Of a stretch of 64,000 nt of DNA, positions 39,682 to 61,504 are shown one piece after another. Under the pieces are notes generated by a model. The model worked only from the letters and a program-made list of their open reading frames with translations, was not told where the DNA came from and did no database searches. Each line of letters opens with the position of its first letter. Positions within the stretch are counted from its first letter, which is position 1. The position numbers and the translations under genes were made by a program. This stretch comes from Escherichia phage ECP2301. The stretch is taken from the sequence record OR880646.1; one strand, written 5' to 3'.

Positions 39682-40152
39682 TTAATCATGTTTCCACACC
39701 CCATCGGTATTTGACCAAAGTCGCTGATTATCTGATCCTCGCCATAGCTTTTTGGTCGGAAGATTTTTCTCATACTTCCCATCAATAATAACATCAACAT
39801 ATTTAAGCATTTCTAGTTGTTTAATATCTTCAAATTTATATCCTGTCCACAACCAAATGCTTTTATTGGGATAAAGATTTTTTACTGTTTGAACAATGCA
39901 ATGAACAACATCTCTATTATCAGGATAGAGGGGGTCTCCCCCAGTTATAGTTAATCCTTCTATATAATCATTATTCAAACATTCAATTAATTGTTCCAGT
40001 GTTTCACCAGTGAATGGAACGCCATTTCTAGCGTTCCATGTTGATTTATTATAACACCCTTCGCATTTATGCAAACAACCTGTAACGAAAAGAACGACCC
40101 TGCATCCAGGGCCATTCACAAAATCGCAAGGATAAAATCTATCATAATTCAT
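39682..40152 (-). CDS. nrdG: anaerobic ribonucleotide reductase activating protein (radical SAM), 156 aa
   Basis: CxxxCxxC cluster (CLHKCEGC); 156 aa; overlaps nrdD stop. Confidence 0.9.
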   Translation of the reverse strand: MNYDRFYPCDFVNGPGCRVVLFVTGCLHKCEGCYNKSTWNARNGVPFTGETLEQLIECLNNDYIEGLTITGGDPLYPDNRDVVHCIVQTVKNLYPNKSIWLWTGYKFEDIKQLEMLKYVDVIIDGKYEKNLPTKKLWRGSDNQRLWSNTDGVWKHD

Positions 40153-41966
40153 TGGTGTTTAACCCTATGCATGATTTCTTTATTTTTGCCAAGATTAAAT
40201 CCACGTTCGTTCGGATTTCCCAAATAACCACAAGTTCTTCTTATTGTGTTCATCTTTTTAGGATCAGTTTCTCCACAAATAGAACAAACAAACCCGTTTT
40301 CAGTAGGAGTCATTTCATGGGTACTTCCACACGTAAAACATTTATCTACTGGCATATTAACGCCAAAATAATCTAAATGTTGTGCAGCATAATCCCATAC
40401 AGCCTCAAGACCCTTTAGGTTATTTTTCATATCAGGAAGTTCAACATAAGAAATGTGACCACCTGTCGCAATGAAATGATATGGTGCTTCGCGAGAAATC
40501 TTTTCAAACGGTGTGATATTTTCTTCTACTGAAACGTGGAAACTATTAGTGTACCAGCCTTTATCAGTAACATCTTTTACACTTCCATATTTTTCAGTAT
40601 CAAGTTTACAGAAGCGATAGCACAGGTTTTCAGCAGGAGTAGAATACAAGCTAAAAGCAAAACCGGTTCTTTCAGTCCACTGCTTAAGACGAGCATTCAT
40701 TTTAGTTAAAATTTCCTGTCCAATATCACGACCGACAAGAATATTCAATTCGTGAATACCAATGTATCCTAGGGACACTGAACTTCTACCGTTTTTAAAT
40801 AACTCAATTATGTCGTCATCGGGTTTAAGACGAACCCCGAATGCACCTTCTTGGTAAAGAATAGGAGCAACAGTCGCTTTAACTCCTTTTAAGGAACTAA
40901 TTCTACACATCAAAGCTTCAAAACACAAATCCATTCGTTCATTGAACAATTCGGCAAATTTCTGTTCATTGAATTGTGTTCCAATATAAGAATCTAACGC
41001 AATACGAGGAAGATTCAGTGTTACAACGCCAAGATTATTACGTCCATCAAGAATTTCATTACCAGTCGAATCTTTCCATACGCTTAAGAAACTACGGCAA
41101 CCCATTGGAGAAACAGGAATAGATGAACCGGTGATAGCTTTATTGTTCTTAGCTGAAATAATATCAGGATACATTCTTTTGCTTGCACACTCTAGAGCAA
41201 GCTGCTTAATATCATAGTTCGGATCGTCTTTATAAAGATTAACACCTTCTTCAACGAACATAACAAGCTTAGGGAAAATAGGAGTTATCCCATCGCGACC
41301 AAGGCCTTTAATGCGATTTTTCAGAATTGCTTTCTGAATCATTCGTTCAGTCCAGTCAGTTCCCGTACCAAATGTAATTGTTACAAAAGGCGTTTGTCCG
41401 TTTGAACTAAAGAGAGTATTTACTTCATATTCATAAGCTTGGAATGCGTCGTATACATCTTTTTCTGTTTTAGATTGGGCATAATTCAACGCATCAGCGA
41501 TTTGCCATTTTTCTGCATCCTCAATATGTTTTGCATAGGTGCGTTTAACATAAGGAGAAAGTACTTTATCTACATTCGCAAAAGTCGTTCCGCCATATTG
41601 ATGGGAAGCAACCTGTGCAGTAATTTGTGCCATAATTGCAGTAGCAACGCCGATTGATTTAGGAGTTTCAATCTGTGCATTACCGAGCTTAAATCCGTTT
41701 TCAAGCATTCCTTTTAAATCTACTAAACAGCAATTAGTAAATGGAAGAGCAGGGGAATAATCAATATCATGGAAATGGATAATTCCGCTTTCATGCGCTT
41801 TCATAATAAAAGACGGGACCATATTTTTGGCAATGTGTTTAGACACAATACCAGCCATAAGGTCCCGTTGAGTTGGAAAAACACGAGAATCTTTATTAGC
41901 ATTCTCGTTCAAAAGGTCTTTATTAGTTTTATGAATCAATCCTTCAATTTCTTTTTCAATTGTCAT
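40149..41966 (-). CDS. nrdD: anaerobic ribonucleoside-triphosphate reductase, uninterrupted, 605 aa
   Basis: 605-aa ORF with C-terminal zinc-ribbon and glycyl-radical region (RTCGYLG); single continuous frame. Confidence 0.94.
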   Translation of the reverse strand: MTIEKEIEGLIHKTNKDLLNENANKDSRVFPTQRDLMAGIVSKHIAKNMVPSFIMKAHESGIIHFHDIDYSPALPFTNCCLVDLKGMLENGFKLGNAQIETPKSIGVATAIMAQITAQVASHQYGGTTFANVDKVLSPYVKRTYAKHIEDAEKWQIADALNYAQSKTEKDVYDAFQAYEYEVNTLFSSNGQTPFVTITFGTGTDWTERMIQKAILKNRIKGLGRDGITPIFPKLVMFVEEGVNLYKDDPNYDIKQLALECASKRMYPDIISAKNNKAITGSSIPVSPMGCRSFLSVWKDSTGNEILDGRNNLGVVTLNLPRIALDSYIGTQFNEQKFAELFNERMDLCFEALMCRISSLKGVKATVAPILYQEGAFGVRLKPDDDIIELFKNGRSSVSLGYIGIHELNILVGRDIGQEILTKMNARLKQWTERTGFAFSLYSTPAENLCYRFCKLDTEKYGSVKDVTDKGWYTNSFHVSVEENITPFEKISREAPYHFIATGGHISYVELPDMKNNLKGLEAVWDYAAQHLDYFGVNMPVDKCFTCGSTHEMTPTENGFVCSICGETDPKKMNTIRRTCGYLGNPNERGFNLGKNKEIMHRVKHQ

Positions 41967-58362: not shown

Positions 58363-58824
58363 TCATTGAGTTTTAATTACTGCTTTAGAAGCCTTTCCTG
58401 GTAAACGACGACTGTTGATAATTGCCATCCTACATTGAAGCGACGGGTCTTTGAATTTCGCATTAGGTTTACAAACTGTAAATCCAAGCCAAAGATTTCC
58501 ATCTGTGATTTCTAAACGTCCAGGGCGATATTCAACCCCATCAATAAAATCCTCGTCAATGTCAGGACGCGGAGGCATACTCAGGAATTCATTAACTTCT
58601 AAAACATGGTCTTTTATTTTGTGGAATAATTCAAAAACATATGTCTCATCAATCTCCCGTTGAATTGCACGATCAAGAAGATGCTGAGAATATTTTAGAT
58701 GAAACGATGAGACCCCTGCTGCTTTTGATGCCTCACGAATCTCATTGTTAATTTGACGAAACTCCGACTCAAAGTGACGACGAAGCTTATTTCGACGGAT
58801 AAAAACTTCTGTGTTGATAGTCAT
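58363..58824 (-). CDS. regB: endoribonuclease RegB, 153 aa
   Basis: Near-identical to T4 RegB as I recall it (MTINTEVFIRRNKLRRHFESEFRQINNEIREASKAAG...). Confidence 0.92.
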   Translation of the reverse strand: MTINTEVFIRRNKLRRHFESEFRQINNEIREASKAAGVSSFHLKYSQHLLDRAIQREIDETYVFELFHKIKDHVLEVNEFLSMPPRPDIDEDFIDGVEYRPGRLEITDGNLWLGFTVCKPNAKFKDPSLQCRMAIINSRRLPGKASKAVIKTQ

Positions 58825-59162: not shown

Positions 59163-59458
59163 TAATATTTTTCCTCTGGTTGGAACACAGCACGACAAGC
59201 CCACATACTGGCTTCTTTGAGTTTCGTTTTAGCAATAGTTAACTGATCGAGGCTTTCAGCATAATTCTTCGCGAATTCACAGTCTTCACAATTATCCAGT
59301 GCTTCCCAAAATTCATCGTATAAAGCGTCAAAGATAAGTCCTAAACGAACTTCAGCATCTTTGATAGCATTCACTTTACCGATTTTCTCTTCAGTATGTG
59401 GCTTATAACCTTTAATATCTTCAATCATATTTGACTTCCTCACCAGTACATAAATCAT
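59162..59458 (-). CDS. hypothetical acidic protein, about 98 aa
   Basis: ORF; start uncertain (alternative ATG at 59428). Confidence 0.35.
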
Positions 59459-59642
59459 ATTCAACTAAACGAATAGGTTCATGAATGCCATATCCTTGAA
59501 CAGAAATTTCTGTCGTAGGATAAATTCCATCAATATCACCCATGGTCCACGCTTCATTAAATTGCTGTTCGCCTGAATTACTAAACCACTCGGCGAAAGC
59601 ATTTAACACATCTTTAGAACCTTCAATAATTATCTTTGCCAT
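59421..59642 (-). CDS. hypothetical protein, 73 aa
   Basis: ORF, ATG start. Confidence 0.4.
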   Translation of the reverse strand: MAKIIIEGSKDVLNAFAEWFSNSGEQQFNEAWTMGDIDGIYPTTEISVQGYGIHEPIRLVEYDLCTGEEVKYD

Positions 59643-60004
59643 TACAGACTCTCAGTAAAGGTACGAGCGATAACGTCGCGCTGCTGTTCCGGAGTCAGAG
59701 AGTTAAAGCGAACTGCATAACCGGATACACGGATGGTCAGCTGCGGATATTTTTCCGGATGCTTAACTGCATCTTCAAGAGTTTCACGACGCAGAACGTT
59801 TACGTTCAAGTGTTGACCACCTTCAATTTTAACTGTAGGCTGTGGTTCAATTTCAATTTCACGGGCATGCAAACCGTAGAAAATTTCTGGGTCTACAAAA
59901 GAGTCCTCTTTAAAGGTTTTAGAAACAATAATTCGTGCTTGAATACCATCTTCAAAATAAATAGTACCTTTATGTGTGCCTTCAAGAATTTGATATGCTT
60001 TCAT
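59642..60004 (-). CDS. autonomous glycyl radical cofactor (GrcA/YfiD-like), 120 aa
   Basis: C-terminal ...[60 protein letters not shown] matches E. coli GrcA and the PFL glycyl-radical motif RVSGY. Confidence 0.85.
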
Positions 60005-60010
60005 ATAACC

Positions 60011-60340
60011 TCAATTAGAAAATAAATTTATCCAAGACTGTTCTTTAATTAAAAATGGCTCAGAATCATATGCCATTAAACTTTGGGTGATTAGTCCTTT
60101 AAAAGGACCATCAATAAATTCCATGGTAAAATATGGAATTTTATTCATTAATCTTGCATTAGGAGCAGTACACAAAACTCTGCATCCTTTGAATACACCT
60201 TTTTGTAATTTGTATTGCTTATGATAAAATTCGCTCAAGACGTTGTTATTTGCCAAAATTTCAAAATGATTCACCAATTTATTTTTAATAGTTTTTGGCG
60301 AAAAATAAAGATATTCGAAAAGCTGTGTGTCTGTCATCAT
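60011..60340 (-). CDS. hypothetical protein, 109 aa
   Basis: Start moved to ATG overlapping upstream stop (ATGA). Confidence 0.4.
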   Translation of the reverse strand: MMTDTQLFEYLYFSPKTIKNKLVNHFEILANNNVLSEFYHKQYKLQKGVFKGCRVLCTAPNARLMNKIPYFTMEFIDGPFKGLITQSLMAYDSEPFLIKEQSWINLFSN

Positions 60341-60924
60341 TGCATTCCGATTACGAAAAACTGCGGACGAGTAATACCACCAATGCAACATTTAATATTA
60401 CAGCAGTAGTGTACAGTGTCAATATGGACGCTATAAATCTTATCCATATCAGGAGATTTAACAGGCTCATCGATTATATACAAAATCCGCGAAAGCGATA
60501 AACCTCTGAACTTGCTTCCTTTATTACCGATAAAACTACGGACAGAATCAGTAAATAAGCGGAATCGAATATCATCACTAGAATAACGAGAAAATTCTTT
60601 TTTAATGTGGCCTGCAGAAATTTTAGCGTAAGCTGAAGTATTAGAAAGAACAATAACTGTTCCACCATCATACAGCCAATTAGCAGCAAAGTTAGTCACA
60701 GCAGTTGATTTACCAGATTGACGTCCACCATCTAGTCGAAGTGTACAATATTGTTTAAGCAAGTCTTCAAATGGTGGGATATAATCGTTTTTACAAATTT
60801 CTTCTACTCTAGCATCAGAATGGTGTGTAAAAGCATTCATCAGGGATAGATAAGGGCCAGTTAAAAATGTTCTCATTTTATTATCTCTAAATTTGGGCCA
60901 TTCCATGGCGCATGAATTGTCCAT
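60337..60924 (-). CDS. small P-loop NTPase (Walker A GGRQSGKST, Walker B ILYIIDEP), 195 aa
   Basis: ORF with Walker motifs, next to the internal-protein gene. Confidence 0.45.
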   Translation of the reverse strand: MDNSCAMEWPKFRDNKMRTFLTGPYLSLMNAFTHHSDARVEEICKNDYIPPFEDLLKQYCTLRLDGGRQSGKSTAVTNFAANWLYDGGTVIVLSNTSAYAKISAGHIKKEFSRYSSDDIRFRLFTDSVRSFIGNKGSKFRGLSLSRILYIIDEPVKSPDMDKIYSVHIDTVHYCCNIKCCIGGITRPQFFVIGMQ

Positions 60925-61030
60925 TTTCTGTATTTACCCATTACCGCACTCAGGCTCGACCTTATTACAGGTTGGCGGGAATCCCTCATAGAATCATGAG
61001 GTCCAGCTTGTTCCCATATTTCTTATTTGC

Positions 61031-61504
61031 TTATTTGAATGATTTGACGTACTGAATAGAGCCTTTGCTATTCACGAAAGCGATTTTACCATTTTTGTTA
61101 TACATGGTAGCAGTACGCTGATAACCATAAGTTTGCTTACCAGATTGATAACCAACTAATGCAAAATTATCTTCACCCATTTTATTCTGCTTCGCGCGGA
61201 TACGTTCATGACCGTGCGCCATAAGAACCTTAGCATCGCCAGTTGAAATTGATCTACGAGTTTTTTCATCTTCAACTGTACTAACAAAGTCGTCAAATGA
61301 ATCAAATTTAGCATGAGATTTATTATACAGTTTTCCATCTACTGCATAATTATATCCCTGTACATCCATCTCAACTTCTGTACCATCATCCAATACAGCA
61401 GTGATTTTTTGACCTTTTTTAAATTTCAAAAGATCAGTAAAAGATTCAGCAATAATTTGAGAATTAATAGCTGCTTCAGTGATAAATTCTTGATATGTTT
61501 TCAT
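61031..61504 (-). CDS. phage internal protein with capsid targeting sequence (MKTYQEFITEA), 157 aa
   Basis: N-terminal 11 residues match the T4 IP capsid-targeting consensus MKTYQEFIAEA; length differs from T4 IPII/IPIII. Confidence 0.65.
   Translation of the reverse strand: MKTYQEFITEAAINSQIIAESFTDLLKFKKGQKITAVLDDGTEVEMDVQGYNYAVDGKLYNKSHAKFDSFDDFVSTVEDEKTRRSISTGDAKVLMAHGHERIRAKQNKMGEDNFALVGYQSGKQTYGYQRTATMYNKNGKIAFVNSKGSIQYVKSFK

Follow-up and report, generated by a model that had tools for sequence, protein, structure and literature searches.

When a phage gene encodes a protein that is nearly identical to one of its host, one would like to know whether the gene was recently taken from that host or has long belonged to the phage. 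This question is raised by a gene on the minus strand, at positions 59642..60004, of a 64,000-nucleotide stretch of DNA from Escherichia phage ECP2301 (sequence record OR880646.1; the whole stretch is referred to below as the window). A preliminary description, made from the sequence alone, had recognized the product as a GrcA/YfiD-type glycyl radical protein, had noted that its C-terminal 60 residues are nearly identical to those of E. coli GrcA, and had seen in this a sign of recent acquisition from a host. The identity is in fact complete (residues 61-120 of the phage protein are the same as GrcA residues 68-127, 60/60). As evidence of recency, however, protein identity does not serve, because the segment is invariant across many bacteria, many Enterobacterales among them: the same 60 amino acids occur without change in Citrobacter, Edwardsiella, Serratia, Pectobacterium and others, and nearly so in Pasteurellaceae. 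The nucleotide alignment with grcA, which had been proposed as a check, does uncover recent, Escherichia-specific DNA, but only in an internal patch of 175 nucleotides (nt), the 5' half being old phage sequence. The claim of recent acquisition thus holds for the patch and not for the rest of the gene.

The recent event converted part of a gene that the phage already had and did not bring in a new one. Our overall interpretation, which we regard as probable, is that an old vs.6/Y06I gene of a T4-like (Tequatrovirus) phage, encoding a 14-kDa stand-alone glycyl-radical module, has had the 175-nt segment for its radical domain overwritten by host grcA. The overwriting would have come about through gene conversion, in which the phage gene recombined, homologously or homeologously, with the chromosomal grcA, the source being Escherichia for Tequatrovirus and Mosigvirus and Klebsiella for Jiaodavirus, in at least two and probably several events. 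It is not particular to ECP2301: the same conversion is seen in T4 and in hundreds of genomes of the genera Tequatrovirus and Mosigvirus. The gene and its parts are as follows (ORF, open reading frame; GC3, GC content at third codon positions):

59642..60004, minus strand: vs.6/Y06I ortholog (phage GrcA), 120 aa, ORF from ATG to TAA, the end coordinate taking in the TAA stop
59827..60004, minus strand: 5' half, ORF nt 1-178, residues 1-59, phage-lineage sequence by grcA comparison, GC3 and conservation among phages
59652..59826, minus strand: probable host-derived conversion tract, ORF nt 179-353, residues 60-118, structured glycyl-radical domain, 173/175 identical to E. coli grcA
59642..59651, minus strand: 3' tail, ORF nt 354-363 including the stop, phage-type nucleotides again, with differences at 354, 357 and 360
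59720..59722, minus strand: codon of Gly95, predicted glycyl radical site by motif position and alignments to 6OWR and 1CM5

A host-like segment within a phage gene

Along the gene, identity to E. coli grcA changes abruptly twice. The first 178 nt share ~54% of their nucleotides and ~27% of the encoded residues with grcA, at nt 178/179 identity steps to ~99% within a few bases and remains there up to nt 353, and from nt 354 the sequence is again of the phage type, nt 354 and 357 differing from every E. coli allele examined. Matches over the tract fall from 173 of 175 for E. coli to 172 for a cryptic Escherichia clade, 158 for Citrobacter and 150 for K. pneumoniae. When the full 3' half is taken (nt 179-363), 181 of 185 positions agree with grcA in each of the 5426 complete E. 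coli genomes, the four mismatches being synonymous without exception, and 153 of 185 agree with that of Salmonella. No genus other than Escherichia comes closer to the tract than 90%. Synonymous divergence (dS) tells the same: over the tract it is 0.07 to E. coli but rises to 0.57 for Citrobacter, 0.88 for K. pneumoniae and 1.3 for Salmonella, whereas in the 5' half synonymous sites are saturated relative to E. coli and nonsynonymous divergence (dN) is higher. Base composition follows the same boundary, with a GC3 of 0.19 in the 5' half and a host-like 0.41 in the tract (the GC content of the window is 0.345). Conservation of the 5' half extends across the genera of Tevenvirinae, and the degree of its divergence follows phage taxonomy.

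A megablast search of window positions 39001-64000 against the 5426 E. coli genomes returned the tract as the sole near-identical match, with a weaker echo of pflB at the same place; nrdD, nrdG and other host-homologous genes in that interval gave no match to E. coli at this level. Both pflB and tdcE were considered as donors of the tract and rejected, identity being ~83-86% to pflB versus 98-100% to grcA. As to direction, dS between bacterial genera is equal in the two halves of grcA; grcA has therefore been inherited vertically, and the transfer was from host to phage. Chromosomes that are labelled as plasmids in PLSDB were used as a source of host grcA; such "plasmids" include whole chromosomes of K. 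pneumoniae (CP125156.1, 5.37 Mb), Aeromonas caviae (NZ_AP026896.1, 4.94 Mb) and several E. coli (4.8-4.9 Mb), a flaw in the data quality of that collection.

The ends of the patch also fit the substrate that recombination would have had. Its 5' end is where phage and host genes become alignable, at codon 60, which lies a few residues past the start of YfiD's structured domain, and its 3' end lies a few bases short of the stop codon. Over the tract, "unconverted" phage alleles share 79-83% of their nucleotides with host grcA, exact runs reaching up to 17-20 nt, and the 5' half of the phage gene has no homology to host grcA through which recombination could proceed, which explains why this gene was affected, and why only this half of it. 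To judge from these alignments, the pattern is that of homologous recombination replacing a segment of a resident gene, not of the insertion of a captured one.

Other origins of the host-like segment have to be weighed against conversion. If the whole gene had recently been captured from E. coli, a disordered and weakly constrained 5' half might have diverged fast afterwards; the corresponding part of YfiD is indeed disordered (PMC8683613), and the higher dN of the 5' half would agree with this. Rapid divergence under weak constraint accounts neither for a step from ~99% to ~54% within a few bases nor for saturation at synonymous sites next to a tract with a dS of 0.07, and the 5' half is conserved across phage genera as far as T5-like and jumbo phages (MKAYQ.L..., ARxIVSKTF.ED) and has phage-like GC3, so that we find recent capture of the whole gene very improbable. 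Convergence at the nucleotide level, under purifying and codon-usage selection and with no transfer of DNA, could draw on the invariance of the 60-residue segment in many bacteria. Yet Cronobacter phage Invicta and Enterobacter phage CYPEBC003 encode the same 60 amino acids with ~29 of 44 synonymous sites differing from E. coli (dS ~1.6; the DNA of Invicta is ~84% identical to E. coli over the segment), the DNA of bacterial genera that have the same segment matches the tract at only 83-90%, and the codon usage of the tract is like that of the host rather than the phage; convergence is hardly credible. That the patch is an assembly artefact or contamination by host reads would be suggested by nothing beyond its identity to the host. 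The same mosaic recurs in the T4 reference and in over 600 phage genomes sequenced independently, is in frame and carries synonymous changes private to phages, which reduces an artefact to a practically negligible chance.

One conversion or several

Whether the segment was converted once or repeatedly was addressed by comparing seven genes of the Tequatrovirus type with three of the Mosigvirus type. The two groups are separated by 13 fixed differences in nt 1-178 (all of them within nt 39-170) and by none in nt 179-353 (Fisher P = 2e-4); when only third codon positions are counted there are 8 versus 0 (P = 0.006), and a fixed difference appears again at nt 360. Likewise, the window gene (Tequatrovirus-type) and that of O157 typing phage 6 (Mosigvirus) have a dS of 0.45 in the 5' half and 0.18 in the tract. 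Pairs of phages without sign of recent exchange served as controls, and in these the 5' half and the tract have equal dS (0.116/0.098 for the window and T4, 0.051/0.048 for Invicta and CYPEBC003, 1.05/1.10 for Roth90 and Invicta). In several phages of both groups the tract is identical at 175 of 175 positions to the grcA of some E. coli strains. Three host haplotypes at nt 204/219 recur among the phage tracts: A/T in E. coli FDAARGOS_497 and the window, T/T in E. coli SK1144, T4 and most other phages, and T/C in E. coli 504239 and in phages L109 (Tequatrovirus-type) and tp6 (Mosigvirus-type). Their distribution cuts across the groups defined by the 5' half, and the shared haplotypes suggest more than two events within E. 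coli phages.

A further, separate case is provided by the Jiaodaviruses of Klebsiella. Their gene has a phage-type 5' half (72% nucleotide identity to the window gene, with clear protein similarity, and a dS of 1.3), joined to a tract that is 94-97% identical to K. pneumoniae grcA, has a GC3 of 0.57-0.59 and encodes the Klebsiella-type LLDAVE instead of LEDAVK. The dS between the window and Jiaodavirus tracts (0.635) is about that between the E. coli and K. pneumoniae tracts (0.669). Since a Klebsiella-type tract sits on a phage 5' half, there have been at least two independent host-specific events, and the 13 versus 0 fixed differences within the E. coli phages likewise speak for independence. 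No such tract is seen in Karamvirus, Slopekvirus, Pseudotevenvirus, Krischvirus, Aeromonas, T5-like and jumbo phages, where the corresponding segment is 67-86% identical to that of any bacterium sampled.

One may also consider that a single ancestral conversion by E. coli DNA was followed by spread from phage to phage during co-infection, the Klebsiella-type tract being a separate single event. The boundaries of the tract are alike in both groups (last fixed difference at nt 170, differences again at nt 354-360), most phage tracts have T204, and T-even phages are well known to recombine readily. Similar boundaries would, however, be expected from independent events too, given that homology to the host ends at the same places. 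Moreover, the phage tracts include three E. coli haplotypes (A204/T219, T204/T219, T204/C219) that do not follow the 5'-half groups, and the Jiaodaviruses pzk-kv19 and PKO111 differ more in the tract (dS 0.537) than in the 5' half (0.245). We therefore favour several exchanges with the E. coli gene pool, as far as these comparisons allow, and consider a single conversion to be unlikely, though a chance that has to be taken seriously.

Repeated conversion would invite a wider interpretation, namely that strictly lytic T-even phages recombine with host DNA in nature often enough for the radical half of vs.6 to undergo concerted evolution with the grcA of the main host genus, the N-terminal targeting half remaining the phage's own. 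Selection could then act on the patch as a "host-matching" module adjusted to host PflB and PflA, and the patch would at the same time preserve a record of the lineage's recent hosts. This we advance tentatively, as a possibility to which we would not give even odds. Several points weigh against repeated conversion, or against its being frequent. The counts are small (~44 synonymous sites, 10 phage sequences of the Tequatrovirus and Mosigvirus types and three fully read E. coli alleles), some of the polymorphisms shared at nt 204/219 could be parallel mutations, and passage of an already converted tract between co-infecting phages, although we think it the less likely course, would produce some of the same patterns. 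For the PKO111 tract no donor above 90% was found; a metagenome scan with a 23-mer of PKO111 yielded eight bacterial contigs, none matching at more than 157/175. Conversion also appears to be occasional rather than continuous: T4-like phages isolated on Yersinia, Proteus, Hafnia or Salmonella keep the patch type of their own phage genus, and no phage has a Salmonella-type tract, none being more than 88% identical to Salmonella grcA.

The patch type thus tracks the genus of the phage and not its isolation host, and may be a record of the principal or recent host of the lineage. Salmonella phage PSE-D1 (ON550260.1, ~166 kb) has a Klebsiella-type patch like that of the Klebsiella phages matched in the same search, 97% identical to K. 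pneumoniae. The vs.6 proteins of Yersinia phage PYps47T and Proteus phage Isf-Pm2 are 99-100% identical to that of the window, which implies an E. coli-type patch.

Function of the phage protein

The gene and its biochemical role are already known, since the window protein is the ortholog of T4 vs.6/Y06I, the biochemistry of which was described in 2001. The two proteins agree at 119 of 120 residues (T4 gene at NC_000866 63557..63919) and the genes have the same synteny: regB and vs.3 to vs.8 are shared with T4, the gene lying between regB/vs.3-vs.5 on one side and vs.7/vs.8 on the other. This conserved position in the T-even early region, from regB (58363..58824) to vs.8, is borne out by the annotation of T4 and S1P5QW and by PHROG hits of the neighbours. 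The protein itself matches phrog_1209 (E 1e-62, residues 1-120 of 121), and more than 1,500 phage records have a homolog of vs.6, ~560 of them at 95% protein identity or more.

That the product is a GrcA/YfiD-type glycyl radical protein is confirmed by a match of residues 61-101 to Pfam Gly_radical (PF01228; 66.8 bits, cut-off 22.2). The radical site persists on closer alignment: Gly95, in the motif RVSGYAVRF, is equivalent to GrcA Gly102 and PflB Gly734. Among solved structures, the best phmmer match is the nuclear magnetic resonance structure of YfiD (6OWR, E 9e-42), and the next is PflB 697-759 (1CM5/1H16, E 5e-26), to which the domain is 77% similar, as befits a duplicate of the C-terminus of pyruvate formate-lyase (PFL). 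Like other members of the GrcA/YfiD family the protein stands alone, being 120 aa long with its own start, Shine-Dalgarno-like motif and stop.

YfiD and T4 Y06I are the two validated "spare part" proteins (PMC8683613), so that the preliminary description was right to say that a T4 homolog has been described as a spare part for oxygen-damaged PFL; the activity of the very protein to which the window gene is orthologous has been published. As Wagner et al. 2001 are cited in PMC8683613, both YfiD and Y06I are radicalised by the PFL activase and restore the activity of O2-cleaved PFL. In YfiD, residues 61-127 are structured and duplicate PflB 693-759; residues 1-60 are disordered, yet aid binding and activation of cleaved PFL (cPFL) (PMC8683613).

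Judging by orthology, the spare-part mechanism is the most likely function of the window protein. Its steps, taken from the literature on T4 Y06I and E. coli YfiD and transferred to the 99%-identical window ortholog, would be the following. Under low or fluctuating O2 during infection, host PFL would be cleaved by O2 at Gly734. The phage protein would bind the cleaved enzyme, its C-terminal domain (residues ~60-120) standing in for the lost C-terminus of PflB, and the host activase PflA would place the radical on Gly95, bringing back PFL activity. Output of acetyl-CoA and ATP might in this way be sustained in a cell no longer able to make its own GrcA and PflB.

Some findings count against a full functional equivalence with YfiD. 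Membership in the autonomous glycyl radical cofactor family GrcA/YfiD was assessed with TIGR04365 (IPR011140), and as a whole-protein equivalog the phage protein falls short: its alignment, which covers only residues 20-120, earns 153.3 bits where 170 are required and E. coli GrcA reaches 233.9. The shortfall arises because the N-terminal half is divergent, and for the same reason the protein might not engage cPFL or PflA in quite the way that YfiD does. In addition, no benefit of vs.6 to the phage during infection is reported in the literature searched. In RefSeq the name "autonomous glycyl radical cofactor GrcA" is given to T4 vs.6 and to many of its phage orthologs despite a score below the cut-off, and the PHROG 1209 family is still listed as of "unknown function".

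Relation to the anaerobic ribonucleotide reductase

The preliminary description also pointed to NrdD/NrdG at 39682..41966. These coordinates are confirmed, the expected domains were found, and the two genes coexist with the vs.6 ortholog in the window:

39682..40152, minus strand: nrdG, anaerobic ribonucleotide reductase activase (Fer4_12, 165 bits, and Radical_SAM)
40149..41966, minus strand: nrdD, anaerobic ribonucleotide reductase with its own glycyl radical domain (NRDD, 572 bits; Gly_radical, residues 481-586)

In principle the vs.6 protein could serve these enzymes instead of rescuing PFL, either by supplying NrdD with a spare part or by being acted on by NrdG, or else it could be a decoy that interferes with host PFL. 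The homolog in Aeromonas phage PX29 comes immediately after nrdD-nrdG, that of fENko-Kae01 is placed between the two genes, and no infection phenotype is reported in the literature searched, which leaves room for such roles. Against them, BLASTP detects no significant similarity to the window NrdD (E 2.6), such as a spare part would have, and the C-terminal radical motif of NrdD is RRTCGYLG, not RVSGYAV, and is intact in the window phage, PX29 and fENko-Kae01. The vs.6 domain, moreover, is identical to that of GrcA and resembles PflB 697-759, Y06I is reported to restore PFL, and in the window the genes are 18 kb apart, nrdG/nrdD being followed by endonuclease VII. A role of this kind is, in our view, improbable, and rescue of PFL is the function that we retain.

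For phages with a grcA-like gene beside nrdD/nrdG, a split NrdD was considered and rejected, as their NrdDs keep a glycyl motif of their own. The grcA-like gene of PX29 (2501-2878 of its locus) overlaps nrdG, and that of the Klebsiella jumbo phage fENko-Kae01 occupies 1321-1683 of its locus. The linkage to ribonucleotide reductase genes in these two phages may hint at co-regulation or at activation by NrdG.

Comparison with known systems

The closest known counterpart is T4 vs.6 itself, with 120 aa, the same neighbours, the same host-identical 3' tract and the same breakpoint. The two genes differ at 10 of 363 nt and in one residue (R73 in the window, H73 in T4); within the tract the window has A204 and two private synonymous changes, T196 and T228, and T4 has T204 and a non-synonymous A218. 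E. coli GrcA/YfiD (6OWR) is likewise a stand-alone protein of 14 kDa, identical in the C-terminal 60 aa including the radical glycine, with a structured domain that duplicates PflB 693-759, and even the N-terminal halves are weakly but collinearly similar (ARxIVxKxxFxED, RE..E..P.V). In contrast to GrcA, the N-terminal 59 aa of the window protein are seven residues shorter and ~27% identical, and the gene stands in a phage early-gene cluster and not beside ung.

Intragenic recombination between host and phage in auxiliary metabolic genes is already a known kind of event. In T4-like cyanomyoviruses it has been reported for psbA and further auxiliary metabolic genes (Zeidner et al. 2005; Sullivan et al. 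2006). In psbA, as in vs.6, a phage copy of a highly conserved host metabolic gene has internal patches that are host-like in sequence and composition, a sign that alleles of phage and host have recombined. The vs.6 case differs in that the phage is a strictly lytic, host-DNA-degrading coliphage with hydroxymethylcytosine-modified DNA, in that the patch is 175 nt long, up to 100% identical to extant host alleles and coincident with one structural domain, and in that, as DNA, the rest of the gene cannot be aligned with its host counterpart. A search of the literature turned up no account of the vs.6 nucleotide mosaic, although an earlier one may exist; the mosaic may be an unreported evolutionary detail, and one of modest interest.

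What it offers is a clean natural case in which a lytic coliphage that degrades host DNA has copied a stretch of host gene the size of one domain into the homolog that it carries, with a parallel Klebsiella-type patch, and hence a tractable system for measuring host-to-phage gene conversion. It also cautions that protein identity to a host is no sign of recent transfer where the segment is invariant, and it raises the question of whether the combination of a phage-specific N-terminal half and a host-identical catalytic half matters for infection at low O2, for instance in the gut.

GrcA-like genes of T5-like phages (Epseptimavirus and relatives) and of jumbo phages have the same two-part architecture and a related N-terminus (MKAYQNL..., MTIKAKQILSGEHTGTI...), but their 3' halves are 76-79% identical to any bacterial grcA, with PflB-like C-termini (…RTFTQAM) and no host-identical tract. 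In the T5-like phages (Demerecviridae) the gene is of 122 aa, beginning MKAYQNLKSG... and ending ...RTFTQAM, as in Citrobacter phage CitS1 (1320-1688 of its locus) and in T5-like IMG/VR contigs. Its GenBank names vary between "ribonucleotide reductase subunit", "acetyltransferase", "2-ketobutyrate formate-lyase" and "pyruvate formate-lyase".

Genetic context and other observations

The translation start of the window gene is preceded by the following element, identified by direct reading of the sequence and the ORF table:

60009..60012, minus strand: GAGG, Shine-Dalgarno-like, 4 nt 5' of the ATG

This motif overlaps the TGA stop of the upstream vs.7-like ORF, and the stop of the vs.6 ortholog overlaps in turn the ATG of the downstream vs.5-like ORF (59421..59642), as TAATG. 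A scan for promoters and terminators around the gene gave no excess over shuffled sequence (16 versus 12.8 +/- 4.0); the sole plausible promoter seen is a TTGACA-16-TAATAT site at 60422..60395, 5' of vs.7.

Two bacterial records of grcA call for comment. In NZ_JBQPOM010000029.1, assigned to the Gram-positive "Vagococcus sp. WN89Y", there is an Enterobacteriaceae-type grcA with 91% protein identity to that of E. coli and the Klebsiella/Enterobacter-type LLDAVE, probably through contamination or mislabelling. In K. aerogenes NCTC10006 (LR134122.1) grcA is frameshifted and annotated as a truncated "Pyruvate formate-lyase", likely owing to an indel sequencing error.

Beyond vs.8 (60337..60924), window positions 60924-61504 hold one gene for an internal virion protein of 157 aa (61031..61504, phrog_3155), which is situated between vs.8 and the endolysin region. 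At that position T4 has denV, ipII and ipIII, and S1P5QW is arranged as the window is.

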